In this document: positions 7,440 to 53,085 of the stretch, in pieces
Layout: each line of letters begins with the position of its first letter
How positions within the stretch are numbered: position 1 is the stretch's first letter
NCBI GenBank assembly: GCA_963836045.1
Contig: CAWIIC010000004.1
Span: 313,726 to 377,725, forward strand
Direction: 5' to 3'
Length of the DNA stretch: 64,000 nucleotides
Source of the DNA: an uncultured Pseudomonadota bacterium
GTDB lineage: Bacteria > Chloroflexota > UBA5177 > JAJPKF01
Notes under the pieces: generated by a model
Databases searched by the model: none
What the model was told of the DNA's origin: nothing
What the model saw: only the letters and a program-made list of their open reading frames with translations
Position numbers and translations under genes: made by a program

Positions 7440-7715
7440 CCGCAAACGGCTTCATCCGCTGTCCCGAGCCCCTTTGTTCGAAAATGGCGTCGGACTCCTC
7501 CACGTTACTTTCGGCCGCGATCGCCGTGGCTCGTTCTTCCATCGCCCTTGTCCTCGCGGTCGCCTGGACTGAAAACTGAAACTTGAAGTGGCGTCGGAAG
7601 CCTAAATGGCGACGACCGCGCGAATACTGCGCTCCTGTTCGTCCAATGCCCGGGCGATGGCGGTCGCCTGGACTGACAACTGAAAACTGAAAACTGAAAA
7701 CTGAAAACTGAAAAC
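7440..7715 (+). repeat. two tandem copies of the dispersed heptad-tailed intergenic element (family 1)
   Basis: Each copy has a gttcgaaaatggcg module, a ccatcgccc..cgcggtcgcctgga core and a ctgaaaa/ctgacaa heptad tail. The 7306..7764 and 7505..7798 minus ORFs (FQFSVFSFQFSV) are repeat artefacts. Confidence 0.8.
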
Positions 7716-7848
7716 TTCCGACTGACCGGCCTCCCCTTTCCCCTGGAATACGAGTCTCCGGCATCGCAGTGAACCGTGCCTCTAATCGGTGTTGTCAATC
7801 GAGTACCTGCTTGGGTACCATGAGACGCAGAACAGGAGGGTTACGCTC

Positions 7849-9021
7849 ATGAAGCCGTCGTCTCCTCGCGCTTTCGCTCTGTTACTGATCCCGGTACTTG
7901 CTCTTGGGCTAGTCGGCATGGGCAATGGACCGTTCGCTGCTAACGCTGCCGCCTCGTCCCCGATTCGGCTCCAGCAGCTGCACATGGTCACTTCGAGGTA
8001 CGGCTGGGCCACCGCTGGTCACAGGGTGCTTCGAACCAGGGATGGTGGACGGAATTGGCATACGGTTCTCTCGATTTCTGTCGGCCCCAGGCCCCAGACA
8101 GCTCCCATTGCCTTGACCACGCTGGGCCTCTCCTCCGTGTGGCTGGCTGTGCCCGATACCGGCAAATACTGCGCTGTTTTCCGCAGCTTCGATGGCGGCT
8201 CTCGCTGGCAGCTCTTCTTCAAGACGATCGCGTCGACGGCGTGTGGAATGGGAGTCGTCTCTTCCTTCCAGTTCGTTACTCGCAGCCGCGGCTGGCTGAT
8301 GGCCACCTGTTGCGCCGCTGCCGGCCACGTCGGCCACATCCTCTTTCGCACGGGCGACGGTGGCGCCCACTGGAAAGCAGTCGAGTCCAATCTCCCTCGT
8401 CGTGTAACTCCGGGAGCCATTCCCAACTGCGACTTCCAGGCGAATGTGACGTTCCGGAGCTATATCGACGGTTGGGCGACCGGCCAGTGCGGTCCCGCTG
8501 CTCAGGCGGAGAGTCTCTACCGAACAACTGACGGCGGTCGAACCTGGGCCCCGCGACAGTTCCCCGCTCCGCCCGGCTGGCACATCTGCAGCTCGCTGGA
8601 CTGCAATGGGTACGTCTTCACCTACCCGCCCACGTTCTCCGGTAACTTCGGCTCTCTCCCCGTGAGCCTCGCACCCAAGCCCGCCCTCGTCCTCTATTCC
8701 ACCACGAACGGCGGCGCTACATGGCGTCCAGGAACGCCGCTGCGCGTGCACACCAGCTCTCCCCTCACTGGTCCCATGCCCGTCCTGGCATCACTTAACA
8801 GCAGCACCGTCTGGGCGCTGATGAATTCCCGGCTGTACATGACGTCGGACACCGGCCGCCACTGGCAGGTGGTGAAGAATCACCCCGGACTCGGCGCCAA
8901 TCCGGTAATTCAGTTCGTAACGTCAAGCTGTAGGCTTTGCTCTCTCTCCCGGCAAAAACTTCATCCGCGAAACCTCCGACGGCGGTCACAACTGGCACAA
9001 GGTGTTCACTCGATTCTCTGA
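7849..9021 (+). CDS. secreted BNR/Asp-box repeat protein (Ycf48/sialidase-like); probable frameshift near the 3' end
   Basis: An AGGAGG RBS precedes the MKPSSPRAFALLLIPVLALGLVG signal. Six S/T-x-D-G-G-x-x-W BNR motifs are present. A seventh BNR (ETSDGGHNWHKV) is encoded in the +1 frame at about 8940..9025. Confidence 0.65.
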   Translation: MKPSSPRAFALLLIPVLALGLVGMGNGPFAANAAASSPIRLQQLHMVTSRYGWATAGHRVLRTRDGGRNWHTVLSISVGPRPQTAPIALTTLGLSSVWLAVPDTGKYCAVFRSFDGGSRWQLFFKTIASTACGMGVVSSFQFVTRSRGWLMATCCAAAGHVGHILFRTGDGGAHWKAVESNLPRRVTPGAIPNCDFQANVTFRSYIDGWATGQCGPAAQAESLYRTTDGGRTWAPRQFPAPPGWHICSSLDCNGYVFTYPPTFSGNFGSLPVSLAPKPALVLYSTTNGGATWRPGTPLRVHTSSPLTGPMPVLASLNSSTVWALMNSRLYMTSDTGRHWQVVKNHPGLGANPVIQFVTSSCRLCSLSRQKLHPRNLRRRSQLAQGVHSIL

Positions 9022-9155
9022 CTGACAGCCCCTGTGGACACCGCCCCCCCCCACATGGAGCCCTAGAAGCCCAACTTACTGCCGGAGGGTCACAGCAACC
9101 TGCCGACTCCGAGTCAACCAAAGTGGTGCCTGTGTTCCCAGGCATCTTCTATGAC

Positions 9156-9605
9156 CTATACGTAAAGTCGAATAATCCGTTCCGCTACGCAAACCGGTTT
9201 GGACTGCCCGTCCCGCTCCACCGTCGAGGCGATGACCAGCTGCACTCCCCCCTCCAATTCGGTAACTTCACTGACGGCAAACCTCGCGCGCACCCGGCTC
9301 CCCACGGGAACCGGGGCCGGGAATCGCACTCGATTCAGACCGTAGTTTATGCTCGTGGCGAACCCTTCCAGAGTGATCGCTTGCTCCCAAAAATACGGCA
9401 GCAAAGACAGCGTGAGGAATCCGTGGGCAATGGTGCTGCCGAACGGTCCACCCTGAGCCCGCTTCGGATCGACGTGTATCCACTGAGGGTCGCTTGTGGC
9501 CTCGGCAAAAATGTCGATACGACTCTGATCGATCTCAAGCCACTCGGTTGGCGGGATGCTGGTATCCGCGAGTTGCTTCACCCCTTGAACACCCGTTACC
9601 TTCAT
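9156..9605 (-). CDS. MaoC-like (R)-specific enoyl-CoA hydratase / hot-dog dehydratase
   Basis: 149 aa with hot-dog fold signatures (DPQWIHVDPKRA...GSTIAHGFLT). Confidence 0.8.
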   Translation of the reverse strand: MKVTGVQGVKQLADTSIPPTEWLEIDQSRIDIFAEATSDPQWIHVDPKRAQGGPFGSTIAHGFLTLSLLPYFWEQAITLEGFATSINYGLNRVRFPAPVPVGSRVRARFAVSEVTELEGGVQLVIASTVERDGQSKPVCVAERIIRLYV

Positions 9606-9645
9606 GCCCTACGCCGAACGCGTACTCGGCATTCATCCCGATCCG

Positions 9646-10389: not shown

Positions 10390-10492
10390 TCGAAATTACC
10401 GCCGATCAAACAGTCCCGCCTCCGAGCGCCGCCCGAAACCGAAAACCGAAAGGCTCATCACTGAGAAGTCAATTGACACCCACGTCACGACT

Positions 10493-16440: not shown

Positions 16441-16505
16441 ATCGCTCGCCGAGAGCAGTGGGTTCAGTCCCGTGATCGCGAGCTGGATAAGGTGTTCTAA
16501 CCGGC

Positions 16506-17190
16506 ATGGCCTACGAGACCATCAATGACTCCGTAGAGTCAGGCGTTGCAACCATCGAACTGAACCGCCCCGATGCGCCCAATGTCATTACCCGTGAAAT
16601 GCACAACGAATGGGTCGGCCGCCTCGAAGCGGCGCGCCAGGAGGACGACGTCAGGGTGGTCGTGATCCAGGGAGCCGGGCGAGCCTTCCCTGCCGGCCAT
16701 GACCTTAAACAGGACGTCGAGCCCCCCTTGCGCAAGCCGAGGACGGCGGGCCGCCCTCGGCAATGAATCTCTTATCGCACTGCTATCTGGGACTTCGACA
16801 AGCCTGTCATCGCCGCGGTGCATGGCGACTGTCTCGGCAAAGGCATGTCAGGTCGCTCTGGGCCTGTGACTTTGTGATCGCCGCCGAGGATGCTGTGATT
16901 GGCGAGCGGGAAGTGCGATCCGCTAACTCAGCGACGCTTCCCGCTTTCCATAGCTCGTTGGTCTCCGAAGGGCCTAGCATCTGCGTACGCTGGGCAGGAC
17001 GGTGACGGGCCGGCGAAGCTGAGAGCATGGGCATGTCTCGGTTTGCCTGCCCGCCGGCCGAGCTTCGACCACGAACGAAGACCTTGCCGGCGAGGTGGCC
17101 TCTATTCCACCTGCTGCAATCCGTCTGAACAAACGCAGTGTCAATCATGCCTTTGAGCTCATGGGGTTGCGGTCGGCAAGCCTCTAAACA
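16506..17190 (+). pseudogene. enoyl-CoA hydratase/isomerase (crotonase) remnant with at least two frameshifts
   Basis: VATIELNRPDAPNVI...VVIQGAGRAFPAGHDLK in one frame, WDFDKPVIAAVHGDCLGKGM in a second, and ACDFVIAAEDAVIGEREVRS in a third. Confidence 0.55.
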
Positions 17191-17299
17191 ACTTGGAAAC
17201 GCTGTCGTTGACGATTGCCGCGAGCTTCCAGGTCAAGCCGAGTACCGAACTTCGACCGCATTCGTCGTGACAAGGGCCTGAAGGCGGCGATAGCTGACC

Positions 17300-19331
17300 G
17301 TGACCGGGCCTCGTGGACGGGGCAAGTCAACCCTTGAGGAACCCTCCTGCGCCCATCGTCGGTCGCGGTCGGTCGGCGTCTCTCCATCGTTTGAGCCCGG
17401 GCAGCCGCGTGATCCACAAATCTGCGCGATGGCGGATTCCCTGGAAATATATCCGGTCAACCCAAAATACTCAAACAGTCGCGGACCTCCCCTGTGACCC
17501 GTTCGGTGAACTCCATTGGCGCTCACGTCGACACGGTCGTCATCGCTGTAGCGGGTCGCCACGTTCCCGACATCGTTGGCGAAGCAGTCGAGTGCGGAGT
17601 GGCCCTCGCTGTGATCCTCCCGAGCGGATTCGGTGAGTCAGATGAGGAGGGCTGCTGTCTGGAGCTCAAGGCTTGTGGCTTTGCGCGGACAGATCAGCAT
17701 CGTAGGTCCAAACTGTATGGGCTTCTTCTCATGTTGACGACCGGGGTCGCTGCTGATAGCGGGCTGACTGAGGGCATTCGTTCTGGGCAGGCTCTGCCAT
17801 CGTGACGCAGAGCTGGAGTCAGAGGATGCTGGCTCGCGAACGCGGCTGAGTCACAGGGAATCGGCCTTAGCTATCGGATATCGAGTGGGGATTGTCTGGC
17901 AACCTCGGCACCGCTGCATATGTTGATTTCCTGGCGGAAGATCCGAACACGACCGTCATCGCGCTCTACCTGGAAAGCGTTGCTGATGGCCGGGCCTCGA
18001 TCCAGGCTTCACTCTGGCGCCGCGAAGCAGGCAAGGCGTTGGTCGCACTAAAACCAGGAATTTCAGAAGCCGGACGGCGCGCCTTGACTTCCCACACGGC
18101 CGCCCTCTCAGCAGGAACGACTGCAGCAGCTCTTGCGCTGCATTCAACGCAGGCAGGAAGTCCCGCTCGTGCTGGATGTCCATGAGCTGATACAGTGCCT
18201 ATCTCTCTTCTGCGGCGTTGTCGGCTTCCTCCAGGGCTCCGCGGCTATAACTCACTCGACCTCCGGAACCAAGGACCCGCGCCTGCTCGCCCATCTTCTC
18301 GCCGCTGAGGCGCACTTCCTGCTCTGCCGCCCTTCGCTCCCTATACCCGCATTGAAACTCTGGCAACAGGCCGCTCTCCCTGACTACGCCTTATTCGCGA
18401 ATCCTCTGGAATACCCACCTGGGCGGGGATTGTCTAGGGCTACACGGACGCGTACCGTCGCGCGCTCGAGATCACGGCTCTCGACCCCGACGTTGGCCTC
18501 GTAGTCGCCGCTCAGGACGCCTTTAATGGCCTCGACGTTCAAAGCCGGAAGTACGTCATGCTTCGATAGATTCCGCGGCAGCCGGGGTGGCTGTATCTGC
18601 TTCGACACACACCAATCCGAATCCTTGTCTACGTCGGCCGCGCCGATAGACGACGAGCCGCGGGCGATCCTGAGGGGTGGTCATGTCCCCGACCTTTATG
18701 GTGCTCGGCGCCGGGTCTGAGTGCTTTGGCTGATTTCGTCTCGTTCATCTTTACTCTCAGTCCACGGATTCCGCCCGCGAGCCTCCAATGGGGAACTGCT
18801 CTCTCAACCGGGGATCCTGGGTGAGCGCAGAGCCAAAGGCCTACTCCCAGACGACGGCATACCAACCATGGAAGCCACGCTGGCAAGGTCGTGAGATGCG
18901 GCCGTGGAAGCCGCCCGGAGGGCTCGGCTTCCCTGTCGCCTGAAAATAGAAGCCGAAGGCGTCTACACCACAAGAGCGACGTCGGCGGAGTCCGCCTAGG
19001 CTTGGAAGACGACGTGGCCGTGCGGCTCGCCTACGACGATATCATTGCTCGGCTCGGCATGAATTCTAGGTTTGGCGAACAAGGGCGCCAGGCAGCCTCG
19101 GCGGTGCAGCTGATGGCTCCGGCAGGCGTCGAGCTGATCTGCGGGGGCCCTCGAAGTTTGATCCGGCATTCGGCTAGACCTGTGTGGTTCGGGTTGGGCG
19201 GAGTATCAGCCGAAGTGCTCGACGACGAGTGTCTTCGACCCCATCCTCACCACCTTGACACGGCCTGTTTGATGATCCAGGAGATAAAAGGCGCCCCCAC
19301 GAATGGCTCCCCGCGGCGCTGCCCCCTGTGA
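17300..19331 (+). pseudogene. ADP-forming acetyl-CoA synthetase (acetate--CoA ligase family) remnant
   Basis: Pieces of the CoA-binding domain (VDTVVIAVAGRHVPDIVGEAVECG...GFGESDEEG), the linker (TVIALYLESVADGR...ALKPGISEAGRRALTSHTAAL) and the ATP-grasp domain (VGGVRLGLEDDVAVRLAYDDII) sit in different frames. All match the intact paralog at 25233..27365. Confidence 0.5.
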
Positions 19332-20700: not shown

Positions 20701-20850
20701 CCTGCCCGACCCTCTTTGCTCAATCGAGGACCGCAACGGCATCTGATAGCCCTTATAGTCCCTCAGGCAACTCCGTTGAAGCGGTGCGTAAGATCGTAAA
20801 CACGCTGGGTATGCCGTCTATTCAACCGGGGCAATGAACTCATTTCCGCC

Positions 20851-36590: not shown

Positions 36591-36635
36591 ACGCTGGCTC
36601 CCCAGGCTCAAGGGCTAACTTTACATGCTGGCTCG

Positions 36636-37307: not shown

Positions 37308-37363
37308 GCGCCGCCTCTCAAGAGAAGATTCGTCGTACTGCTACCATCCGCTTTCCTCGCGGG

Positions 37364-40839: not shown

Positions 40840-41480
40840 CAGGTGGTTGACTGAGCCCAACCCGCGTCTGTGCGCCGGCCCCCGACGACCGCAGCCGGGC
40901 TTCCCCTTTCCGAAGACTGACCCCAGTCCGCGCCCGTCCGCCAACTCTCGACAACATCCGCTTGGTCCTCCGTGGCTCTGGGCGGTCGACACGTCTGTGC
41001 GCCGCTCCCCCGACAACCCCCAGCCTCCCGTGCCCAGCCGGTCGCGCCCGTGCGCCAACCGCCGACAACGTCTGCCCCACACTCCGCGAACCGGTCGCAG
41101 CGTCTGTGCGCCGGCCTCGCTAACGTCGCCACGGTTTTCCGTCCCCAGGCGGTTGCCGCGTCTCTGCGCTGACCGCCGACAACGTCCGCCCGATATTCCG
41201 TACTCAGGCGGTCACGGCGTCTGCGCCCCCTCCCCCGACAAACCCGCCCAGCCTTCTGCGCCCGGGCGGTTGCCGCGTTCTGCACTGACTGCCGACAACG
41301 TCCGCCCGATATTCCGTGCTCAGGCGGTCACGGCGTCTGCGCGGCCCTCCCCGACAACCCCAGGCCAACCTACCGTGCGCTGGGCGGTTGCCGCGTCTCT
41401 GCGCTGACCGCCGACAACGCCCGCCCGACATTCCGTGCTGAGACGGTCACGGTGTCTGTGCGCCGCCCCTCCCCGACAAC
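40840..41480 (+). repeat. degenerate tandem array, about 5.5 copies of a roughly 120-nt unit made of two roughly 60-nt sub-repeats
   Basis: Sub-repeat A is ggcggtcacggcgtctgcgc..ccccgacaaccc.gcccagcctaccgtgc.cgggc. Sub-repeat B is ggttgccgcgtctctgcgctgaccgccgacaacgtccgcccgatattccgtgctcag. There are no unique spacers. The array merges into a family-1 element. Confidence 0.8.
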
Positions 41481-41562
41481 CCCGCCCAGCCTACCGTGCC
41501 CGGGCGATCGCGGTCGCTGGAACTGAAAACTGACAACTGAAAACTGACAACTCCCTACCGTG
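41480..41562 (+). repeat. heptad-tailed intergenic element (family 1), abutting the stop of the LCP gene
   Basis: ccgggcgatcgcggtcgctggaactgaaaactgacaactgaaaactgacaact. Confidence 0.75.
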
Positions 41563-43609
41563 TCCACACAATCGGTGACGTCGGATCGAGATTCGGCATC
41601 GAGAACATCTCATGTCGAGCTCCCGTTGGCCAGCCGTTGTGCAGCTCGGCCACCCATAGTTGGAAGTCGTTGCCTACGAGCTTGTAGTATGCCAGATGCC
41701 GCCCGTCAGGCGAGTACGACGGCATCGAAACCACCCCGTAGTCCACGGCTTTAGCCGTGGAGGTCTTGAGATGGCCATTGGTGTAGTTTGCTATGAAAAT
41801 CTTGGAGCCCGCATTGCCATTCGTCTGAACATACGCGATCCTGTGCCCCCACGGCTGCCAGGCCGGTTGAGAATCGTTCTGGCTGTAGGGGGAGAGCGGC
41901 GTCGTTTGATCCGTCGTCAGGTTGAGGAGTGTCAGCTGCGACATCACCGACTCGTCATTGCGGTATGAGTAGGCAGTGTAGACGAGCTGTTGTTGGTTGA
42001 CCGGATCGAAGCGCGGATCCGTGTCGCCGCCCGCCCCCGCCGCTGGGTACGTAACCTGGGTCGTGTTTCCGGTCGTCCGATCTTGTGCGTACAGTCCGAG
42101 ATCGATGTTTCCCGTCGGGTTCGTCAGCTTGTACGCGTCGGACGAGTAAACTATCGTGTTTCCGTTCGGTGAGATCTCAGGGTTGAACGCCCAGAGGTTG
42201 TCCTGCACGACTCCGTCAGTCGCCCGGTCGTGGGTAATCTGCCCGTGTTGACCGGTCTGTAGATTTAACGTGAATATGTCCGAAACGACCGGGCTCCAGC
42301 GCCGGGCGTACGTCAGCCAGCGTCCGTTCCCCGTCACCGATACTCCCGAAACGTCATGCGTGTTCGTCAGACGCGCGGTCGACGTGCCGTCGTACGTCCA
42401 AACATTGCCATTGGACACGAAGTAGACATGACCCCGAAAAGGAGCTGGAGCGACGGTTGGAGTTGGCTTCGGTGGTTTGGGTGGGGGTGCCTGAGTGTTC
42501 ACGGCCACTATCTTTGAGAGGCGGGCTCGAACTTCGGCCGCGGTCGGCGGATGATACGTTTTGGGGGATTTCGGTCGGTACGGATGTGACCCCGAGATCG
42601 GAGCAAACATCTTTTTCACTGCTGGGTCGATAGCCGACCAGAATGGCGTAACCGCCGACTCGCCGTCAGCCTCGGTGGCGCCCGTGGAGTACCTCGGCGG
42701 TGAAAGCACCAATTGGTGTATCTCCGATGGGTTGAGCGAGCGGGCAAACGAGACCATCGCCGGCAGCTGCCCCGTACCTACGTCGCTTTTTACGAATCCC
42801 GATAAGTCGTTGACTAAAGGGTTGAGCTGCTGAATACTGGTCAAAGTGTTCATGCTGTCCACCCGCCGGCGTAAGCCGAGTAGCATCTGCTCCTGCCTCG
42901 CGCCTCGGCCGAAGTCGCCGATCAGATCAGCGTGACGTGATCTGACATACTGCAGCGCCGTCTCGCCGTTCATGTACTGTGGTCCCGGCGCGATATATAC
43001 CCGGGTATAGGAGAAGGGATCGGCACCCTTCGTCATATCATTTGGATAGTTGTCGTCGACGATCGGGTGCGAGGCGTCGATGACGACTCCGTGAAACGTC
43101 TTTATGACGTTGACGAAGCCCTGGAGTCCCACCCAGGCATAGTAGTCGATCGGGATCTTGAAGTTGGCTTCGACGGTCGCCTCTGCGAGTGCCACCCCGC
43201 CCGCGAATCCGCCCTTCCCTCCATCCATGCCCGCTGTCCCGTACGACATGGCCGCGTCGATCTTGGCGTACGTGTTCACACCCGGAATCCATACCCAGAA
43301 GTCGCGCGGAATCGACAGCAGTCCGACCCTTTTGTGAACTGGGTCAATGGTCACGACCATCATGGTCTGGCTGAGCTTGGGTATGCCCTTCTTGTCCGTG
43401 TCGGTGCCCAGAAGCAAGATGTTGATCCGCTTGTTGCCCGTCAGCGTCGGTAGCGTGCCTTTGGGGTCGTACTTCGTCTTGATGTGATGGGGCACATAGA
43501 CGCCCACGATCTGCTGAACCCCTCTGTAGAGGCTATACGCCTCTAAGCCGCCTGCGGCGAGAACCAGCAGCACGAGTACGCCGACTGCGATCAGGACCTT
43601 ACGAAGCAT
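41555..43609 (-). CDS. LytR-CpsA-Psr (LCP) family protein with C-terminal TolB-like beta-propeller
   Basis: N-terminal TM anchor and LCP domain (INILLLGTDTD...MMVVTIDPVHKRVGLLSIPRD). C-terminal propeller repeats (SPNGNTIVYSSDA; SPDGRHLAYY). Confidence 0.8.
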   Translation of the reverse strand: MLRKVLIAVGVLVLLVLAAGGLEAYSLYRGVQQIVGVYVPHHIKTKYDPKGTLPTLTGNKRINILLLGTDTDKKGIPKLSQTMMVVTIDPVHKRVGLLSIPRDFWVWIPGVNTYAKIDAAMSYGTAGMDGGKGGFAGGVALAEATVEANFKIPIDYYAWVGLQGFVNVIKTFHGVVIDASHPIVDDNYPNDMTKGADPFSYTRVYIAPGPQYMNGETALQYVRSRHADLIGDFGRGARQEQMLLGLRRRVDSMNTLTSIQQLNPLVNDLSGFVKSDVGTGQLPAMVSFARSLNPSEIHQLVLSPPRYSTGATEADGESAVTPFWSAIDPAVKKMFAPISGSHPYRPKSPKTYHPPTAAEVRARLSKIVAVNTQAPPPKPPKPTPTVAPAPFRGHVYFVSNGNVWTYDGTSTARLTNTHDVSGVSVTGNGRWLTYARRWSPVVSDIFTLNLQTGQHGQITHDRATDGVVQDNLWAFNPEISPNGNTIVYSSDAYKLTNPTGNIDLGLYAQDRTTGNTTQVTYPAAGAGGDTDPRFDPVNQQQLVYTAYSYRNDESVMSQLTLLNLTTDQTTPLSPYSQNDSQPAWQPWGHRIAYVQTNGNAGSKIFIANYTNGHLKTSTAKAVDYGVVSMPSYSPDGRHLAYYKLVGNDFQLWVAELHNGWPTGARHEMFSMPNLDPTSPIVWTR

Positions 43610-43772: not shown

Positions 43773-44480
43773 ATGCAATTCGAGAACACCTTTTCCGTTG
43801 ACGCTCCGATCGACAGGGTCTGGAGCTACCTCCTTGACGTGCAAGCGGTCGCCCCTTGTGTCCCCGGAGCAGAACTGACCGAGATAGTGAGTGACACGGA
43901 GTTCAAGGGCACGGTCAAGGTCAAACTCGGCGCCGTCCAGGTTTCCTACAAAGGAACACTAGCCTTGAAGGAGGTGGACGAAGCTGCGAGGAAGGTCGTG
44001 TTGGTCGCCAGCGGCAACGAAACCCGCGGGTCCGGCAGCGCCTCCGGAACGGTCACCTCGCATCTGGTTGCCGAAAGCGCCGCGCGCACCTCCGTCCGCA
44101 TAGTCTCGGAAGTCAACATCACGGGCCGTGTCGCTCAATTCGGCCGCAACATCATGCAGGACGTCTCCAACCGTCTCATCCGTGAGTTCGCCAAGTGCGT
44201 GGAGAGCAATCTGGTTGCTCGTGAGGCCCAGCTTCCCCCATCCCTCGGGGCGACTGCTGACGGCAACGATGAGTCCCCGGCCACACCTAACGCCCCCGAG
44301 CAGCCTGTCGGCTCAAGTGCGACGCCGCAGGCGGAGGCTGAACTCCGCCCTCCCTCCGCGAACCCCGAATTCGGCGCTCCCTCCGCGAACCCTGATTCTG
44401 CCGCTCGCTCCGCGAACCTGATTCAGGCGCTCGCTCCACGAACCCTCAGTTCGGCGAGCCCTCCACCAACCCTGATTTAG
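43773..44480 (+). CDS. SRPBCC-family CoxG-like protein with C-terminal low-complexity repeat tail
   Basis: MQFENTFSVDAPIDRVWSYLLDVQAVAPCVPGAELTEI is a CoxG family signature. The tail runs into the 27-nt tandem repeat. Confidence 0.7.
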   Translation: MQFENTFSVDAPIDRVWSYLLDVQAVAPCVPGAELTEIVSDTEFKGTVKVKLGAVQVSYKGTLALKEVDEAARKVVLVASGNETRGSGSASGTVTSHLVAESAARTSVRIVSEVNITGRVAQFGRNIMQDVSNRLIREFAKCVESNLVAREAQLPPSLGATADGNDESPATPNAPEQPVGSSATPQAEAELRPPSANPEFGAPSANPDSAARSANLIQALAPRTLSSASPPPTLI

Positions 44481-44600
44481 ACGCTCGCTCCACCGACCCT
44501 GAACTCGGCGGGCCATCCACCAACCCTGGATTCGGCTCTCGCTCTGAATTCGGCGGGTCCTCCACCAACCCTGAATTCGGCGCTAGCTCCGCGAACCGAC
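44340..44600 (+). repeat. tandem 27-nt repeat (about 9 copies, consensus cctgaattcggcgctcgctccgcgaac) at and after the 3' end of the CoxG-like gene
   Basis: It encodes PEFGAPSANP-like nonapeptides in the gene frame. Repeat copies differ by indels, so the frame breaks. Confidence 0.75.
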
Positions 44601-44789
44601 CCGTTTCTTCGTCGACGGACACAGGCTCCGTCCCCAGCCCTGCGACCCCACCCAGTCCGCCCTACTCGGAGGCCGAGCCGCTGAAACTGATGCCCTTGTT
44701 GATGGACATCGCACGCTCCCGCCTGGCCGCTGCCCTACGCGCCCTCGCCAAGCTGGTTGAACCGCCGCCCCAAGAGTAGCCTGAGGTCC

Positions 44790-45100
44790 GAAAGCGCCGT
44801 CGGAATCCACCACGGCGACTGTCGCCACCACTATCGTGGCCCCAGCCCTCCGTTTCCGTGGGGCGGGTCGCGGTCGTGCCTTGTTCTTCCATCGCCCGGG
44901 CGATCGCGGTCGCCTGGAACTGAAACCTAAAACTACTTTTCATGCTTCGTGACGCGTCAAGGGCATGGGAGGCTGTTCGAAAATGCGTCGCAATCCAGCC
45001 ACGGCGACCACCGTCGCGACCACTGTGGCCCGTTCGTCCATCGCCCGTGCGCTTGCGGTCGCTGGAACTGAAAACTGAAAACTGAAAACTGACAACTTAA
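44790..45100 (+). repeat. two tandem copies of the heptad-tailed intergenic element (family 1)
   Basis: Both copies contain catgcttcgtg / gttcgaaaatg / ccaccacggcgac..tcgcc.c.accact / ccatcgcccgggcgatcgcggtcgc(c)tggaactgaaa... modules. The 44662..44943 minus ORF is an artefact. Confidence 0.8.
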
Positions 45101-47550
45101 ATCTTCTTCGTCACTCGCTTATCCAGATAGTCCAACAGAACGTGCTCCCCGAGGTGATACGGACCCGTGAGAAATGCGCGTCCCCGGTTGACCGCCGTCA
45201 TCCGCTCTACAAACGATACGAGTGCCTGGTCGGCGTCGAGCATGAACGTGTTGATGACGATGCCCTCCCGGTAACAGCGTGCAGCCTCCGTGAGCGCGGC
45301 CCGCCGTACAAACCCCGGAGCGGGGTAATTGACGTAAATCCCCCCATTCGGTACGCAACACGCGGTCGGCTCCCCATCGGTGACGAAGAGAATCTGGCGG
45401 TTTCCTCCCCGATGGCGAGCGAGCAGCCGGCGTGACAGCGCCAGAGCCATCTCGTAGTTGGTGCCCTGCACCATGTAGTTCTCCGCCAGTGCCGGCAGAT
45501 CGTCTCTCGTCAGTTCGTAAGCCACGTCGGCGAACCCGATAATCTGCAAGACGTCGTGCGGGAACTGTCCCCGGATCAGGCTGTCGAGCGCGAGAGCGGT
45601 CTTCTTGGCCTCTAAGAACAATCCCCTCAAAAACATCGATCGTGACGTGTCAATCGCCAGCACCGTGGCGTGCCGCACCGCCCGCTCTGTCTCGAAAACG
45701 TCGAAATCTGAAGGCATGAGTCGGAGCGGAGACCGTGCTCCTCGACGCACGCCGTTCATCAGAGTGCTCCTAAGGTCAACGTGAAACGGGTCGCCAAAGT
45801 TGTACGGCTTGCTGTGGGCGGCTAGATCGCCGCCCTGCCCTCTTCGGTGCGTCTGGTGTCCACCCTGACGGTCGTCCTTGAGCTTCTGAAAAATCTCCTT
45901 GAGTGCGCTGTCGCCGAGTTTGCGAATAGCCCGTGGAGTCAATTCCAACCGCTCGCCGTTGCGCTTGAGGTACCCCGCCTCGAGGAGGGACTCGGCCATG
46001 TCCTTCACCGCCTCGATCTGAGCCCCCATTCGCCGTCCGAATAACGAGCTCGGGCTGAGCCCGCTGGTGTTGTTGGCAGCGTCGCTAAGTGCCGACAACG
46101 GGTCTCGCGCCAGCGCTTCCTCCAGCTGCTCCATGGCTTGGAGCCTGCGCATCATGTCCAAAGACTCGCCGAACCCGGGCGCGTCCGACCCTTCGAAGGG
46201 AAAGCCCCCTCCCTGAATCGGGTATCCCATGGCTTCGAGGTTCGCGCCCAGCTGCGCCAGGTCGAGCTGCAACCGGTCGTCCCGCAGCAGCTCGCTCATC
46301 ATGTCAAGCAGCTCTTGTCGAGATTGCGGGTCCATGCTGTCCAGCAGGGCCTGTACCTGTGACGCCTGTTGCTGCAAGTAGCTCAAGAGGTCGTCCAGCG
46401 TCTCGATGTCGGGCGGAAAGTTCTGACCCCATTTGTTCATGAACTCTTGAAAAGCGTGCCGATCACCCTGGCGGCTTGCCTCGATCATCTGATTGAGGTC
46501 CTGGACCATCTGCCGCGTCGCGTCCAGCATCTCGGGCGTTATCTGCCCGACGCCGTCCTTCAAAGATTGGGAATACTGCTGCAGCAATCGACGCTGCAGA
46601 TCGCCGACCAGGCTCTCGAAAGCCTCTCGAGCCTCTGCCGACATAAAGTCATACTCGCGCAGGCTGCGTATCCGTCCCGCGTTGTCCGGCGGCAGTTGAT
46701 CTAGCTGCGATCGCTTACGTTCCAGCATGCGCTCGAGCATGGCTTCGAGCTCGCGTACATCGCCTCCTGAACCGTCTGCACCTCCGTCGCCGGCGTGCTC
46801 ACCGCCCTGCTGCGGCGCCGATCCGCCCGGCTGAGAACCCTGCGGACCTCCGTCGCCGGCACGCTCACTGCCCTGCTGCGGCGCCGATCCGCCCGGCTGA
46901 GAACCCTGTGAACGTCCGTCGCCGGCACGCCCACCGCCCTGCTGCGGCGCCGATCGGCCCGGCTGAGAACCCTGTGAACGTCCGTCGCCGGCACGCTCAC
47001 TGCCCCTCTGCCGCCCCCCGTCGGACTGAGAACCGTCTGCGAAGCCGCCTGCCCTCTGTTGCCCCGCCTGCCCCTGCTCCCGGCCCGGCTCAGAACCCCC
47101 GGGAAGACCAGCCGTCTGTTGCCCTGCTTGCCCCTGCTCCCTGCCCGACTCGCCTTCCCCTGGCTTGGATGGGCTCTCGCCCGTCGAGCTCCCGTCTGAT
47201 CCTTCCGTGCTGCTCCGATTCGTGCCTCGACTCTCGATGCTCTCCCGCTCCATCTGGATGATCTCGTCCAGCTTCTCTCGGATGGCATCGATGGTTCGCG
47301 ACGGATCGTAACGGTCCAGCATGGCTTCGCGCTCGCGCTGCATCTGCTGCAGCAGCCGCCTGAGGCCGTCAAAACGGCGACCGTCAGGCAGCGTAAAGCC
47401 CCGCTGCAGCAGGTTCCGCAAAGCCTTGCGCGGATCTCCCGCGCGAAGCAGGTCGTCGGCTAGCTGGTCGAGTATGTCGTCGGCAGAGAAGTCCGGCACT
47501 TCTTGCGTGCCGTCCCAAGCCGAGTACTGATAGGGCTGTCGTGCCTCCAT
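45097..47550 (-). CDS. VWA domain-containing protein (CoxE-like C-terminal vWA) with long acidic N-terminal region and internal tandem repeats
   Basis: The C-terminus (VLAIDTSRSMF...ILFVTDGEPTA) matches the VWA_CoxE pattern. The central region holds about 4.5 copies of a 60-nt repeat encoding QGSQPGGSAPQQG(G/S)ERAGDGR. Confidence 0.75.
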   Translation of the reverse strand: MEARQPYQYSAWDGTQEVPDFSADDILDQLADDLLRAGDPRKALRNLLQRGFTLPDGRRFDGLRRLLQQMQREREAMLDRYDPSRTIDAIREKLDEIIQMERESIESRGTNRSSTEGSDGSSTGESPSKPGEGESGREQGQAGQQTAGLPGGSEPGREQGQAGQQRAGGFADGSQSDGGRQRGSERAGDGRSQGSQPGRSAPQQGGGRAGDGRSQGSQPGGSAPQQGSERAGDGGPQGSQPGGSAPQQGGEHAGDGGADGSGGDVRELEAMLERMLERKRSQLDQLPPDNAGRIRSLREYDFMSAEAREAFESLVGDLQRRLLQQYSQSLKDGVGQITPEMLDATRQMVQDLNQMIEASRQGDRHAFQEFMNKWGQNFPPDIETLDDLLSYLQQQASQVQALLDSMDPQSRQELLDMMSELLRDDRLQLDLAQLGANLEAMGYPIQGGGFPFEGSDAPGFGESLDMMRRLQAMEQLEEALARDPLSALSDAANNTSGLSPSSLFGRRMGAQIEAVKDMAESLLEAGYLKRNGERLELTPRAIRKLGDSALKEIFQKLKDDRQGGHQTHRRGQGGDLAAHSKPYNFGDPFHVDLRSTLMNGVRRGARSPLRLMPSDFDVFETERAVRHATVLAIDTSRSMFLRGLFLEAKKTALALDSLIRGQFPHDVLQIIGFADVAYELTRDDLPALAENYMVQGTNYEMALALSRRLLARHRGGNRQILFVTDGEPTACCVPNGGIYVNYPAPGFVRRAALTEAARCYREGIVINTFMLDADQALVSFVERMTAVNRGRAFLTGPYHLGEHVLLDYLDKRVTKKI
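46780..47110. repeat. in-frame 60-nt tandem repeat (about 4.5 copies) inside the VWA gene
   Basis: ccgcccggctgagaaccctgcggacctccgtcgccggcacgctcactgccctgctgcggcgccgat repeated with minor variation. Confidence 0.75.
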
Positions 47551-47589: not shown

Positions 47590-47922
47590 GTAGGCGGACT
47601 TCTGCCAAGAAGATGGCCTCGGAATCCACCACGTCCCCCGTGGCCACGACTACTGCAGTCCGGCCCTCGGTGGTCGGGAGGAGAATCGCGGTCGTGGCCC
47701 GTCTTTAATGGCCCGAGCGGTCGCGGTCGCCTGCAGCTGACGCATGACAACTAAGAGCTATTTTTCCATGCTGCGCGGTAGCCCCGCGCATGGGTGGCTA
47801 GTGGGAAAATAGCACCGGATTCCGCACCGCGATCCCCGCAGCGACACTGGCCCGGTCTTCCACCGCTCGCGCGCTAGCGGTCGCTGGAACTGAAAACTGA
47901 CAACTGAAAACTGACAACTCCG
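47590..47922 (+). repeat. two tandem copies of the heptad-tailed element (the first has a degenerate tail)
   Basis: ccaccacgtcccccgtggccacgactact...gcggtcgcggtcgcctgcagctgacgcatgacaact and tttttccatgctgcgcgg...gcggtcgctggaactgaaaactgacaactgaaaactgacaact. Confidence 0.75.
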
Positions 47923-47924
47923 GC

Positions 47925-48425: not shown

Positions 48426-49364
48426 AAAGTAATCGTGACGGGTGCTACCGGTTTTGTCGGTTCCGCCCTCGTGAGGAGGCTGCTGTCGCGGGGCGATCGC
48501 GTCGTCGCCGTCTCCCGCAATCCCGACAAGGCAGCAGTAGTGCTTGGGAACGATGTAACGGCCGTCCCCTGGTCCCCCCCGGCTTCGAACGCCGCCCTGG
48601 TAGACGAGGTCAACGGCGCGGACGCTATCGTCAACCTCGCCGGTGAGCCTCTGGCCGATAAACGCTGGACCCCGGAGGAGAAGGATCGCATCCTGCGCAG
48701 CCGCGTTGATGCCGGCCGTTCCATTCTTGAGGCCGTGCGTATGGCGACTTCGCGGCCCGGCGTCCTGATCAACGCCTCCGCGATCGGGTATTACGGCGAC
48801 CGGGGCGACGAGCGCTTGGTCGAGTCGAGTCCTCCGGGACATGACTTCCTCGCTGATGTGGTTCGGCAATGGGAGGCTTCAGTCGGGCCCGTAATCGAGT
48901 TGGGAGTGCGCCTCGTCCTGCTTCGCACCGGATTTCCGGTTCTCGGCTCGTCCGGCGGCGCACTGCCCCGGTTTGCGTTGCCGTTCAGATTCTTTGGCGG
49001 CGGCGTGCTCGGCCCTCGCGACCAGTGGGTTTCCTGGATCCACATCGAAGACGAGGTCGACCTCATACTCTTCGCCCTGGACTCGGACGTCGTATCCGGC
49101 CCCGTCAACGCCACCGCGCCGAACCCCGTTACTATGGCAGAGTTCTCCAACGGCATCGGGCACGCGCTCAAACGCCCTGTCTGGGTACCGGCGGTCCCAA
49201 CGTTCCTGCGGTTAGTGTTGGGCGAGAGGGCCGAGCCTCTGTTCACGAGTCAGCGTGTCTTCCCCGATCGCGCGCTAGGCCTAGGATTCCAATTCAAATA
49301 CGTGAACGCCAACCAAGCCCTGGACTCTCTCCTAGGAAACCCCCATCCCCAGCCCTCCCGGTAA
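48426..49364 (+). CDS. TIGR01777/DUF1731 family NAD-dependent epimerase/dehydratase (YfcH-like)
   Basis: MKVIVTGATGFVGSALVRRLL Rossmann motif and a C-terminal DUF1731-like region. Confidence 0.75.
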   Translation, partial: KVIVTGATGFVGSALVRRLLSRGDRVVAVSRNPDKAAVVLGNDVTAVPWSPPASNAALVDEVNGADAIVNLAGEPLADKRWTPEEKDRILRSRVDAGRSILEAVRMATSRPGVLINASAIGYYGDRGDERLVESSPPGHDFLADVVRQWEASVGPVIELGVRLVLLRTGFPVLGSSGGALPRFALPFRFFGGGVLGPRDQWVSWIHIEDEVDLILFALDSDVVSGPVNATAPNPVTMAEFSNGIGHALKRPVWVPAVPTFLRLVLGERAEPLFTSQRVFPDRALGLGFQFKYVNANQALDSLLGNPHPQPSR

Positions 49365-49369
49365 TCGCC

Positions 49370-49560
49370 TGCCTACCACCGGACAGCTTACCGTCTACAG
49401 TCCCTCCCGGTAATCTCAGTCTTAACATCCGACAGCTTACCGTCTACAGTCCGTCGTCAACCGGTCTACCGTCGACCGACTTCCCCGGTGGTCTATTTTC
49501 ACTCAATCGTCAATCAACCACTGAAAAACTGACAACTGATAACTGACAACTGAAAACTTA
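49370..49560 (+). repeat. composite heptad block: TACCGTC-type units followed by AACTGAC/AACTGAA units
   Basis: cagcttaccgtctacagtcc...cagcttaccgtctacagtccgtcgtcaaccggtctaccgtcgacc...ccactgaaaaactgacaactgataactgacaactgaaaactta. Confidence 0.7.
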
Positions 49561-50643
49561 GAAAACGATGACCGACCGCAACACCTCTCCCCTATGCATC
49601 GCCGCGAACGCCTCGTCCGTGTCCTCGAGCCCGATTCGTCGAGTTACCACTTCGTCGAGCAGCAGATCCCCCTTGAGGTACAGATCACAGAGAAGCGGGA
49701 AGTCCCGAGACGGCAGGCAGTCTCCGTACCATGACACCCGCAGCGAGCCGCCAAGGCCGAAGTAGCGCTGCAGCGGAAGCTCTATCGCTGCCGCCGCCCC
49801 GTGCACTCCGATCATGACGCATGTCCCGGCCAGGTCTCGCGACCATAACGCCTGTTCGACGGTGTCCGGCCTCCCGGCCGACTCAAACGAGTAGTCGACC
49901 CCCAATCCGTCAGTGAGTTCCTTGATCCGTTCAACCGGATCAGTGTTTCGTGCGTCGACCGTGTCCGTTGCCCCGAATTGCTTTGCCCACGCAAGCTTGT
50001 TGTCCGCGACGTCGACCGCAATGATCCGCCGTGCGTGGGCTAGGCGCGCCCCTTGGATCACGCTTACTCCGACACCTCCACACCCGTAAACGGCAACTGT
50101 GCTGCCGGCTCGGACGTTGGCCGCATACAACGCGGCGCCAACGCCGGTCATTACCCCACACCCAATGAGAGATGCCTGAGCCGGCGGGACGCTCCGCGGG
50201 ACCACGACCGCCTGCTGCGCCGCGACTACCGTGTGGGTGGCAAATGTTCCAATTCCCAACGCCGGTGACAATAGCTTCCCGTCGCTGGTTCTCATTTTCG
50301 GCGCCGCGTTGAGACTGTCGGCACAGAGGTTTGGCTGCCCGATCGAGCAGAAGCGGCATCGTCCGCATGGCGCTCGCCACGCCAGGATGACGTAGTCTCC
50401 CGCCATCGGCTCCGCGACGTTCGGGCCTACCGCCTCGACGATCCCCGCTCCCTCGTGTCCCAGGAGGTAAGGGAAATCGTTCCCGACGTCGCCGTCGATG
50501 TACATCAGGTCTGTGTGGCAGACGCCGCTGGCTTCTAGCCGGACCAGAACCTCGCCTGGCCCCGGATCGTCAATCGTAAAATCCTCCACCGTGGTGGGGC
50601 CGCCGGCCGTCCGAACAATGACTCCGCGGGCCTGTGTGGTCAC
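49558..50643 (-). CDS. zinc-dependent alcohol dehydrogenase, class III-like (S-(hydroxymethyl)mycothiol/glutathione dehydrogenase family)
   Basis: GHEGAGIVEAVG, structural-zinc cysteines C-x2-C-x2-C-x7-C (CGRCRFCSIGQPNLC), and GCGGVG nucleotide motif. Confidence 0.85.
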   Translation of the reverse strand: MTTQARGVIVRTAGGPTTVEDFTIDDPGPGEVLVRLEASGVCHTDLMYIDGDVGNDFPYLLGHEGAGIVEAVGPNVAEPMAGDYVILAWRAPCGRCRFCSIGQPNLCADSLNAAPKMRTSDGKLLSPALGIGTFATHTVVAAQQAVVVPRSVPPAQASLIGCGVMTGVGAALYAANVRAGSTVAVYGCGGVGVSVIQGARLAHARRIIAVDVADNKLAWAKQFGATDTVDARNTDPVERIKELTDGLGVDYSFESAGRPDTVEQALWSRDLAGTCVMIGVHGAAAAIELPLQRYFGLGGSLRVSWYGDCLPSRDFPLLCDLYLKGDLLLDEVVTRRIGLEDTDEAFAAMHRGEVLRSVIVF

Positions 50644-51765: not shown

Positions 51766-51771
51766 TCAAAC

Positions 51772-52113
51772 ATGCACCAGGATGCCGACTGTCTCTGCCC
51801 CAAGTATTGTCGTGCTATTGACGTACTTGGGAAGCGCTGGACGTGTCTCATCCTCAGTGTTCTTCTCCAAGGGCCGAGGCGGTTCTCGGAAATCGAGCAC
51901 GCGGTGCCGGGAATCGGAGGACGGATGTTGACGGAGCGTCTCAAAGATCTCGAGGTGCACGGTATTGTGGAGCGCCATGTCTCTGCCTCTCCCGCGAGGA
52001 TGGAGTATGGGCTTACGGCGAAAGGACACGCGTTGCACCGTGTCGTCTACGAGATTGAGCTGTGGGCTGATCAATGGGAGTCAACAACGCCCGGGGCGGT
52101 GGTTACCGCATAG
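51772..52113 (+). CDS. HxlR-family winged-helix transcriptional regulator
   Basis: CPKYCRAIDVLGKRWTCLILSVLLQGPRRFSEIEHAVPGIGGRMLTERLKDLEVHGIVER is the canonical HxlR pattern. Confidence 0.8.
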   Translation: MHQDADCLCPKYCRAIDVLGKRWTCLILSVLLQGPRRFSEIEHAVPGIGGRMLTERLKDLEVHGIVERHVSASPARMEYGLTAKGHALHRVVYEIELWADQWESTTPGAVVTA

Positions 52114-52287
52114 CTAGGGGTTGTCAGAAGAGGTAAAACCCTTTAGGATGGTATGGCGTCCCGCCACGGACGCTTACGGGTATGGAGATTGCACTACGGC
52201 TACCCATCGGGCTTGCCGCTGAGTCCCGATGCGGGGCGGGCGCCGTCGACAGGCTCCACTTTCTTTTGTGCGCTAGGGGAAGATCGG

Positions 52288-52620
52288 ATGCTGAGACGAA
52301 AGAAACAAAAACGCGTCGTCGACATGACCAACGAAGAGGCCGCGGCGTTTTACGTGCGGCGCGCAGTAATGGCGGAGAACAGCGGGAACTACGGCCGGGC
52401 GAACCACCTGTTCCACACTGCTGCGCTGCATGACCCAGCCAACGTCGACGCCAGTGCCGGCATCGAGCGGACTGGGCCGATCTGCGAGCAGCAGCAAAAA
52501 GCGGCCGCCGCGGCTCCCGCCACGACTACGTATACTCACCAGCACTCGCCTGGTCGTCGCCGCCGAACTCGTCGCCCCTGGTGGAAGAAAGCCCTCAGCT
52601 CGGTGAAGCTCGGGAGCTAA
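52288..52620 (+). CDS. hypothetical protein
   Basis: ORF with a basic N-terminus (MLRRKKQKR) and a TPR-like segment. No RBS seen. Weak call. Confidence 0.3.
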   Translation: MLRRKKQKRVVDMTNEEAAAFYVRRAVMAENSGNYGRANHLFHTAALHDPANVDASAGIERTGPICEQQQKAAAAAPATTTYTHQHSPGRRRRTRRPWWKKALSSVKLGS

Positions 52621-52699
52621 CCGCGACATCTGACGCTTCGGCCCAGCCTCCAAACTCGCTGACTTTCCGGTTTGAAAAGGCTGTTTCATTAGGCTGCTT

Positions 52700-53085
52700 A
52701 CGCCTTAACCGGCAGGGGGATCCCCATGCTTCGTGGTGCCTGAAAGTCATACTGATCCCGTTCGACCATGGCCGTCGTAATCCTCCCCGCCGACCATTGC
52801 CGCGACTACACCAACCCTGACTTCCATACCCCGGGCGGGTGCGGTCGCTGGAACTGACAACTGAAAACTGACAACTGAAAACTGACAACCATTTTCTCCA
52901 TGCTTCGTGGTGTCCAACGCCCTGGGAGGCCAGTTCGAAAATGGAAACGGATCGAGGAGAGCCTCCCCGCCGACCATCGCCGCGACTACAGCAACCCTGG
53001 CTTCCATGCCCCGGGCGGTTGCGGTCGCTGGAACTGAAAACTGAAAACTGACGACTGAAAACTGAATCATGTACCATGATGTGCT
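52700..53085 (+). repeat. two tandem copies of the heptad-tailed intergenic element (family 1)
   Basis: catgcttcgtggtg...ccgccgaccat(t/c)gccgcgactaca..aaccctg(a/g)cttccat(a/g)ccccgggcgg(g/t)tgcggtcgctggaactga(c/a)aactgaaaactga... repeated twice. The 52595..53077 and 52747..53211 minus ORFs are artefacts. Confidence 0.8.

Follow-up and report, generated by a model that had tools for sequence, protein, structure and literature searches.

What are the short intergenic sequences that end in AACTGA-type heptanucleotide repeats and recur, always facing the same way, along contig CAWIIC010000004.1 of an uncultured Chloroflexota bacterium? The stretch of this contig analyzed here (64 kb, hereafter the window) has a G+C content of 60% and carries ordinary metabolic and envelope genes. 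Comparison of the repeated sequences with each other, with a near-identical strain, and with more distant relatives shows that they constitute a lineage-specific family of non-coding, non-autonomous interspersed repeats. As to how the family spreads, the explanation that we prefer, and to which we assign about an even chance of being correct, is that it is a selfish non-autonomous repeat with a slippage-prone heptad tail, propagated by strand-specific insertion and by tandem duplication.

Nine AACTGAA/AACTGAC arrays were located in the window with Tandem Repeats Finder (TRF) and a pattern search, all of them on the + strand and all outside the called genes (Table 1). The AACTGA-core heptads follow each other head to tail with a period of 7 (4-6.4 copies, 85-100% matches in TRF), and the pattern AACTGAMAACTGAM, with at most one mismatch allowed, is matched 30 times compared to 0.02 matches expected by chance, with 30/30 matches on the + strand. 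The tails carry TGA stops in all three + frames. Five of the nine arrays end in AACT, as does the first array of L002, one of two further metagenome-assembled genomes (MAGs; the other is L001) described below, with flanks that are otherwise heterogeneous; this recurrent end could simply be a decayed heptad. Since the elements are present both in an independent 349-kb ENA contig and in a short-read Logan contig, they are not an assembly artefact.

Upstream of the arrays, alignments reveal a modular element common to the copies. An nhmmer profile built from eight copies and searched against the window matched nine copies with E-values between 3.8e-29 and 2.1e-15, as well as a partial one (41497-41540, E 5.1e-11) and a further, tail-less partial copy missing from the original list (3979-4038, E 9.5e-7). 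All profile and pattern matches lie on the + strand, which bears out the original prediction, made from the letters of this DNA alone, of a dispersed heptad-tailed family strictly co-oriented whatever the direction of the flanking genes. The full unit is ~160-190 nt long and is represented by the copies 44940-45101, 47757-47919, 52715-52889, and 52890-53066. It consists of a prefix, TTTT(C)CATGCTTCGTG...GCATGGGAGGC, with T-run/CCATGC...GCATGGGAGG, a core, GTTCGAAAATGG-CGTCGGAATCC-CCACGGCGACCATCGCCGCGACTAC, and a 3' module, (C)TTCCATCGCCCGGGCGATCGCGGTCGC(C)TGG, followed by a tail of 2-6 heptads, a range slightly wider than the 3-5 initially proposed. The notion that all copies share the same ordered modules has to be modified as well: the first module, ccatgcttcgtg, is restricted to four units, downstream or full-length (44940, 47757, 52715, and 52890), the copy at 41480 comprises only the last ~44 nt and the heptads, the site at 49500-49560 consists of heptads only, with no module similarity in either alignments or nhmmer searches, and the palindrome cgcccgggcg, ascribed to every copy, is intact in only some.

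The long-type copies, starting at 36425, 44786, and 47606, have no prefix and include instead a 38-nt insert that folds into a small hairpin with CCCTCC in its loop; the hairpin was seen in five copies. While the 3' end of the element is constant, its 5' extent is variable, with modules of ~44, 104, 112, or 157 nt, or with the tail only, and with copies that start at positions 2, 5, 9, or 69 of the nhmmer profile. Two copies depart from the rule of the constant 3' end in that they lack the 3' part (3979-4038 in the window and 5812-5896 in L001). Head-to-tail doublets are present at four loci, and their upstream units tend to have shorter or decayed tails. The two units of the pair c52889/c53066, located between two + strand genes, repeat with a period of 180 nt and are 93% identical (repeat family D2). 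A second, degenerate unit suspected by eye at 36583-36760 is unsupported (z < 1).

The history of the copies can be read from two comparisons. A 349-kb ENA contig from another sample (ERZ25039590 contig_19768, compared as L009 and L010), 98-99% identical to the window, spans its positions 34.9-64 kb together with 9.6 kb past its right end, a region in which no further copies of the element were found. The elements are located at the same places in both sequences, and the number of heptads differs at most arrays, in steps of 7 nt: four in the window and three in the contig at 36555, four and eight at 41521, and four and three at 49527, whereas one tail that is decayed in the window is represented by two heptads in the contig. 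Tail length thus shifts in 7-nt steps between near-identical strains. In addition, where the window has two units (52700-53066), the contig has a single one, with one 180-nt unit fewer in the BLAST overlap.

The second comparison, the examination of syntenic loci recommended in the original prediction, involves the more distant relatives L005/L006 and L007/L008, in which the VWA orthologues are ~76% identical and the local gene order is kept. Those homologues of the VWA protein (45097-47550, - strand) for which a source is named are labeled Chloroflexota. No heptads or modules were found in 17-22 kb of L005-L008. The spacer between the response regulator and VWA genes is 51 nt long in L005/L006 and 375 nt in the window, that between the VWA and CoxG genes is 28 nt in the relatives and 319 nt in the window, and that between the ADH and epimerase genes is 6-18 nt in L005/L007 and ~190 nt in the window. 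Because these relatives retain the same genes and short spacers without the element, the copies are recent insertions into intergenic spacers that were formerly short, which also accounts for the position of several tails only 0-6 nt from a neighboring stop codon. The family is thus a young one in a soil Chloroflexota chromosome, and its copies have increased in number through dispersal as well as through tandem duplication in head-to-tail order.

A scan of 185,579 species genomes, which undercounts since it used an exact 24-25-nt pattern, returned the two further MAGs mentioned above, L001 (titled Acidobacteriota) and L002 (titled 'uncultured bacterium'). L001 carries three module copies, and L002 carries one module copy with a second heptad array nearby, all on one strand. 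The module blocks that the window shares with these genomes are ~85-90% identical, compared to 34% identity of the neighboring BNR protein. The metagenome scan gave a chance match in AT-rich DNA only, and - strand peptides compared with 5.8 billion proteins matched only the two spurious open reading frames (ORFs) of the window itself. BNR/Asp-box (YCF48/sortilin-like) propeller genes adjoin copies in all three genomes (7789-9021 and 35044-36258 in the window, 5990-7138 in L001, and 850-2595 in L002); this proximity is possibly coincidental, such genes being common in soil bacteria.

The heptads alone have a different distribution. The module has no matches in viral contigs and none in plasmid or phage collections, and an origin from a known plasmid or phage sequence was rejected, since the heptads by themselves match Enterobacter plasmids but the module does not. 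Arrays of (AACTGAM)>=4 were found in 28 viral contigs, often located right before a start codon or Shine-Dalgarno sequence, and the module in 0/28 of them. In the high-GC IMG/VR contigs L011, L012, L013, L021, L035, and L036, (AACTGAA)4 or (AACTGAC)4 is positioned 0-15 nt before an ATG, sometimes with AGGAG between the array and the ATG, an arrangement like that of the TAACTGA repeats of Beggiatoaceae. In the Enterobacter hormaechei plasmid NZ_CP030078.1 (L039), the array at 35779-35814 consists of (AACTGAA)4-8 preceded by GAAAAACTGAAAATC repeats, and arrays of the same type, with a copy number that varies between records, are present at the viral loci L016-L018, L020, L024, L032, L034, and L037. 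The Enterobacter array occupies the spacer between a gene of an AAA-family (ParA-like?) ATPase and a DUF1778/GNAT toxin-antitoxin pair in plasmids of ~108 kb, and may represent a centromere or an operator iteron array. Since AACTGA heptads occur without the module in viral contigs and in Enterobacter plasmids, they are a widespread motif.

All seven independent AACTGA loci are co-oriented (P ~0.016), and the probability falls to ~0.001 when the four loci with related heptads are added; co-orientation is strict over 52 kb, including the second heptad family described below. The neighboring genes at these loci are divergent, convergent, or tandem in either direction, and, as the elements face the same way in all these arrangements, the orientation is not set by adjacent genes. 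In each of the three genomes, the heptad-sense strand is the C-rich one: the + strand has a GC skew of -0.058 in the window, of +0.039 in L001, and of +0.030 in L002; in these two MAGs, the elements are found on the - strand. The + strand skew is negative over the entire window, with a cumulative value of -1.83, and its monotonic course places all copies of the window in one replichore. Between 35 and 57 kb, 14 of the 22 called genes lie on the opposite, G-rich strand, which fits the G-rich strand being the leading one. That the polarity of the element follows replication is thus a suggestion of these data and not a proof.

From REP/BIME sequences, MITEs, attC sites, and PATEs, the element differs in at least one defining feature each. 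Five loci were searched for shared terminal inverted repeats, and only copy-specific internal pairs were found; with no duplication at the junctions either, the element is not a MITE. REP, BIME, and REPIN sequences were rejected since there is no 20-40 bp palindrome with a stable hairpin and all copies are direct, on one strand, and no RAYT/Y1_Tnp-type protein was found in the window or among the called genes of L009/L010. Of the proposal of a REP/BIME-like mobile small element, mobility is therefore the part that stands, given the spacers of the relatives that lack the element, the doublet that is a singlet in the near-identical contig, and the copies in other MAGs, whereas the kinship with REP/BIME does not, in view of the missing palindromes, inverted pairs, and RAYT in the window. 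Integron attC sites were dismissed as well: the element sequences contain no R''-L''/L'-R' palindrome or GTTRRRY core site, no IntI is present in the window, and the genes between the elements are housekeeping genes, conserved in synteny and located on either strand, unlike promoterless co-oriented cassettes. With regard to HUH elements and PATEs, no consistent subterminal hairpins, no conserved target flank, and no TnpA/TnpB in the window were found. As for retroposons, the tail and 3' module are shared and the 5' extent varies, yet two copies are 3'-truncated. The original prediction had correctly described the copies as devoid of terminal inverted repeats and of transposase remnants, and in the collections searched they are not fragments of a known insertion sequence or integron.

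Since the orientation ignores the genes, is constant within the replichore, and places the elements on the C-rich strand, insertion would be strand-specific, either coupled to replication or proceeding through a single-stranded intermediate. Precedents for such a process are HUH-type single-stranded DNA or rolling-circle elements and elements primed by reverse transcription, although the signature of neither was found. The constant heptad end would be the end that is recognized or primed, and tail length would subsequently drift by slipped-strand mispairing. If the host is affected, for instance by TGA stops in three + frames or by changed spacing in the 5' region of a + strand gene, this would probably be a by-product. 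We can speculate further that this is a new type of bacterial mobile element, inserted in one orientation relative to the fork via a single-stranded or reverse-transcribed intermediate, with a heptad tail that is primed or recognized, and able to cross phyla (Chloroflexota, Acidobacteriota). We consider this extended proposal distinctly unlikely; such an element would correspond, among prokaryotes, to the tailed SINE-like retroposons, or would represent a HUH rolling-circle element without hairpins.

Several observations weigh against a selfish repeat spread by strand-specific insertion. No transposase (HUH-type included), integrase/recombinase, or reverse transcriptase is encoded in the 64-kb window or in the 9.6 kb beyond it, and the junctions of filled and empty sites show neither a target-site duplication nor a conserved flank motif. 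At 93-99%, the element regions fall just slightly below the 98% background in their conservation between the window and the near-identical strain, which does not favor selfishness, and the block-wise conservation across genomes could reflect function and not recent transfer. HUH-type elements normally carry strong subterminal hairpins, to which the end modules of this element, with DNA folds of z = -2.0 to +0.7 and a hairpin register that is not conserved, provide a weak fit. Coupling to replication rests on a single replichore segment and two 7-8-kb loci, for which local GC skew is noisy, and seven co-oriented loci out of seven are, taken alone, a weak statistic.

The alternative that assigns a function to the heptad arrays, with or without the module, treats them as cis-acting binding platforms. 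At the RNA level, S1, Csp, or another protein would bind an A-rich leader devoid of structure, or the platform would serve as a ribosome standby site, as has been suggested for the TAACTGA repeats; at the DNA level, it would be a set of 7-bp iterons for a cooperative small DNA-binding protein, with the number of heptads tuning the adjacent gene. The binding of ribbon-helix-helix proteins to arrays of 7-bp iterons is well established (omega of pSM19035), and the location of the Enterobacter (AACTGAA)n, flanked by an AAA ATPase gene and by a DUF1778/GNAT pair, the heptad number that differs between strains, and four arrays of the window located 24-87 nt before + genes (4957, 10453, 7716, 53066) are all in agreement with such a role. 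So is the position of the viral (AACTGAM)>=4 arrays before start codons or Shine-Dalgarno sequences, which matches the Beggiatoaceae pattern (PMC4679880). In the window, however, that pattern fails: only the above four of ~12 arrays precede a + gene, and five to six face a convergent stop codon or sit in doublets without a downstream + gene, so that a leader or operator role is not general here. Orientation is set by the chromosome and not by the genes, close relatives with the same genes do not have the arrays, which are thus not required for those genes, and no candidate binding protein was identified, all of which makes the platform an unlikely explanation. We regard as quite improbable another functional reading, in which selection would maintain one orientation per replichore in strand-polar motifs of chromosome organization or replication, similar to KOPS, Chi, or Ter. 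Although the strict co-orientation that extends to the second heptad family, the C-rich strand in three genomes, and the monotonic cumulative skew of one replichore would all be expected of such motifs, the known ones have a length of only 8 nt, occur often within genes, and are conserved between related genomes. The elements are 110-330 nt long, purely intergenic, and clustered, with six loci within 17 kb and no locus at 9-35 kb, their copy number varies between 98%-identical strains, and they are absent at 76% protein identity. KOPS and Chi, moreover, are enriched on the leading, G-rich strand, and the elements are found on the C-rich one.

A small gene within the element, of an RNA or of a protein, such as a type I toxin-antitoxin-like repeat with its own promoter, was also considered. 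In this scheme, a GGGAGG Shine-Dalgarno sequence located 10 nt ahead of an ATG would be masked by a hairpin in the prefix, and an ORF of ~31 codons would end in the heptads. Full-length units do contain GGGAGG-N10-ATG and remain open as far as the tail's first in-frame TGA, c7583 and c45101 give the peptide MAS(D)SST...ARSSIA..AVAGTEN*, pairing of the T-run/CCATGC with GCATGGGAGG is possible in four copies that show some differences in sequence, and the hairpin of the 38-nt insert, with its CCCTCC loop, recurs in five copies. Tandem arrangement is, moreover, typical of the LDR and Sib repeats of E. coli. The closing hairpin of T-run/CCATGC with GCATGGGAGG is plausible in these four copies, but its register slips and four sequences are too few, and a protein gene on either strand was rejected since frames and start codons differ between copies. 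The ATG is missing or out of frame in five of the nine copies: it is missing in c47919 and x44940, and in c52889, c53066, and c36582 its frame is not the conserved 3' one, with an 8-nt indel right after the ATG distinguishing the sister copies c52889 and c53066 and an in-frame TAA in c52889. Frames on the - strand (FSVPATA.ARAMEERAT...) and on the + strand (..ARSSIARALAVAGTEN*) do recur between copies, but it is only the scarcity of indels in the block that makes them look conserved. The peptides lack a hydrophobic, toxin-like character, and Pfam searches of the element ORFs gave no significant match (the best, GEVED, with E 0.0012, scored 20.1 bits against a cut-off of 24.4 bits). A structured RNA, one of the initial proposals, was abandoned as well: Rfam gave 0 matches to the elements, both at the gathering threshold and at E<=5, covariation offers no support, the consensus fold reaches only -4 to -5.5 kcal/mol (-4.0 kcal/mol for the + strand and -5.6 kcal/mol for the - strand in RNAalifold, with 0 and 1 pairs, respectively, changed on both sides), and ten single-copy RNA folds have z between -1.0 and +0.7. 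Neither intrinsic terminators nor sigma-70 promoters are in excess, in line with the earlier view that the copies are not hairpin-plus-U terminators. On this evidence, a small gene is very improbable.

Other repeats of the window appear to be related to the element. The tandem array of 59/116-nt units (TRF 41137-41506; repeat families D9, D10, and D13) fills a gene-free spacer of ~1.45 kb, and its unit resembles the 3' module significantly (z = 4.7-5.6 compared to shuffled sequences), the array being derived from that module. A second heptad family, (T/A)ACCGT(C/A)/AAACTGT, gives 13 matches to ACCGTMWACCGT, compared to 0.63 expected, with 13/13 on the + strand. Two of its arrays lie on both sides of an ORF of ~66 codons, 1348-1548(-), with CxxC...CxxH spacing (MLRRDGAKIVARCVVCKGDIYNGDDHELWDGGYYCQRH...). 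Just upstream of the 49527 array, a 49-nt tandem repeat (49353-49452, 2 copies, 84%) contains CTTACCGTCTACAGT, and the two together fill the spacer that is 6-18 nt long in the relatives.

Table 1. Heptad arrays, copies of the element, and related repeats, with their positions in the window.
Feature	Positions	Strand	Composition	nhmmer E-value	Surroundings
Array 1	7567-7583	+	short, GACTGAAAACTGAAAC		tail of copy c7583
Array 2	7671-7716	+	6 heptads; TRF 7672-7716, 6.4 copies		
Array 3	36555-36582	+	4 heptads; TRF 36554-36581		
Array 4	41521-41552	+	4 heptads; TRF		
Array 5	45066-45101	+	5 heptads; TRF		
Array 6	47888-47919	+	4 heptads; TRF		
Array 7	49527-49558	+	AACTGAC/AACTGAT/AACTGAA x4; TRF		heptad-only; abuts stop codon of ADH gene 49558-50643(-)
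Array 8	52852-52889	+	5 heptads; TRF		
Array 9	53032-53066	+	5 heptads; TRF		
Partial copy	3979-4038	+	5' half of module, profile 5-67; no 3' module or heptads	9.5e-7	
Copy c7583	7476-7583	+	module + short tail	8.4e-26	upstream unit of pair with c7716, in divergent spacer of PD40 protein gene 5792-7177(-) and BNR protein gene 7789-9021(+)
Copy c7716	7587-7716	+	5'-shortened module, profile 9-112, + 6 heptads	2.1e-15	begins directly 3' of c7583 tail
Copy c36582	36425-36582	+	long type, 38-nt hairpin insert CCGGTCCTCCCTGGCCGG..., 4 heptads	4.1e-24	upstream of BNR gene 35044-36258(-)
Copy c41552	41497-41552	+	3' module only, profile 69-112, + 4 heptads	5.1e-11	ends 2 nt short of stop codon of LytR-family gene 41555-43609(-)
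Copy x44940	44786-44940	+	long type, degenerate tail AACTGAAACCTAAAACTAC	9.4e-24	upstream doublet unit; starts 9 nt past stop of CoxG-like gene
Copy c45101	44940-45101	+	full: prefix TTTTCATGCTTCGTG...GCATGGGAGGC, core, 3' module, 5 heptads	3.8e-29	last heptad overlaps stop codon of VWA gene 45097-47550(-)
Copy x47750	47606-47757	+	long type, degenerate tail	2.4e-21	upstream doublet unit; ~40-55 nt from VWA gene start codon (47550)
Copy c47919	47757-47919	+	full-length, 4 heptads	1.2e-23	ends 5 nt before stop codon of response-regulator gene (47925)
Copy c52889	52715-52889	+	full-length, 5 heptads	1.8e-25	first of tandem pair
Copy c53066	52890-53066	+	full-length, 5 heptads	2.3e-28	62-87 nt upstream of sugar dehydratase/epimerase gene (53128/53153 +)
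Tandem array	40850-41510	+	59/116-nt units TTCCGTGCCCGGGCGGTTGCCGCGTC... + GC-enriched degenerate heptads		
Second-family array	1198-1333	+	TRF		ends ~10 nt before stop of small ORF ~1348-1548(-)
Second-family array	1612-1640	+			
Second-family array	4911-4956	+			24 nt upstream of + gene at 4981
Second-family array	49390-49450	+			
AAACCGA array	10436-10451	+			

Some features of the window concern its genes. The VWA-domain gene includes a 66-nt tandem repeat (46769-47005, 3.6 copies, 91% matches) that encodes a 22-residue Gly/Ser/Gln/Pro-rich repeat and is probably an expansion; the protein has 817 aa here and its orthologues 704-747 aa. A 27-nt tandem repeat in 10 copies (44338-44597) occupies the C-terminal part of the CoxG-like gene, whose ORF stops at 44480 (235 aa), with a 335-aa product that extends to ~44777 in the 98%-identical contig, a difference that suggests a frameshift, a difference in repeat length, or an assembly error. 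A 163-nt direct repeat (37362-37524 and 39856-40018, 90% identity, 2.5 kb apart) flanks the region of a TIG-domain gene that is split in the window (37364-38767 and 38812-39708) and is a single 790-aa gene in the related contig. The region 16500-21300 has short ORFs only, including an ATP-grasp_5 fragment (18891-19331), and overlapping ATP-grasp_5 and Succ_CoA_lig ORFs at 30743-32960 have the appearance of a disrupted paralogue of gene 25233-28070 (945 aa); both regions are either pseudogenes or the result of long-read frameshift errors. There are no tRNA genes in the window and no Rfam families at the gathering threshold.

For intergenic heptanucleotide repeats (STRR, TAACTGA, GGGAATC), although known for decades, no explanation of origin or function has gained acceptance. 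An array of the AACTGA type tied to an insertion-polymorphic module leads to a testable idea of origin, namely that such arrays arise and spread as tails of an element that inserts strand-specifically. A reversal of orientation at the origin and terminus of the full genome would point to replication-coupled insertion in Chloroflexota without a recognizable transposase signature. In practical terms, hypervariable tails and doublet/singlet polymorphism are strain markers, and also a source of mis-assembly in soil MAGs.

Comparison with known systems reveals partial similarities to several of them. Like the element described here, the pneumococcal BOX element is a lineage-specific, non-coding sequence of intergenic spacers built from modules, in which a tandem sub-repeat, internal or terminal, varies in number, although BOX has strong secondary structure, is found in both orientations, and has a 45-nt unit in place of 7 nt; there is no sequence similarity between the two. 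The resemblance to eukaryotic SINEs and other non-LTR retroposons, an analogy only, consists of a constant 3' end with a tail of short repeats of variable length, a variable 5' extent, head-to-tail arrangements, and a non-coding, non-autonomous nature. Unlike SINEs, the elements have no target-site duplications, no reverse transcriptase is present in the window, and some copies are 3'-truncated; we know of no bacterial precedent for a SINE-like tailed element. REP/BIME/REPIN sequences (RAYT, HUH Y1) and PATEs derived from IS200/IS605 are likewise small, non-coding, high-copy, and intergenic, located near gene ends, often in clusters or tandem mosaics, without classical terminal inverted repeats, and transposition of the IS200/IS605 type has an orientation bias that results from its strand specificity and from its coupling to the replication fork. 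The elements differ from these families by the absence of a strong palindrome, inverted pairs, a GTAG/CGTC-type head, and a Y1 transposase or TnpB in the window, and also by their microsatellite tail, which is not a feature of those families.

The original prediction had pointed to the cyanobacterial STRR repeats, an apt comparison, and the closest described repeat is the TAACTGA class of intergenic heptamers found in Beggiatoaceae, Cyanobacteria, and a few Bacteroidetes (MacGregor 2015, PMC4679880), to which the heptad tail belongs by its motif (TAACTGA/STRR-like). In Beggiatoaceae, these repeats are found in the forward orientation just upstream of start codons, a feature that varies between species, whereas in Microcystis, arrays located between stop codons all have one chromosomal orientation; their function is unexplained (PMC4679880). 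Common to both are an AACTGA core, here (A/C)AACTGA, in 2-8 tandem copies, a purely intergenic location, TGA stops in three forward frames and none in reverse, 7-nt indels between close strains, spacers that are shorter and repeat-free in relatives, and mixed arrays of related heptamers. Three properties set the repeats of the window apart: the arrays are attached as tails to a conserved module of 110-190 nt, a module not described for TAACTGA; most of them are not placed before a start codon and are oriented by the chromosome and not by the downstream gene; and the host is a 60% GC member of Chloroflexota, a phylum outside the published list of carriers (PMC4679880). What is new here is thus the joining of the heptads to a conserved, proliferating module, their chromosome-polar orientation, and their presence in a high-GC Chloroflexota host.

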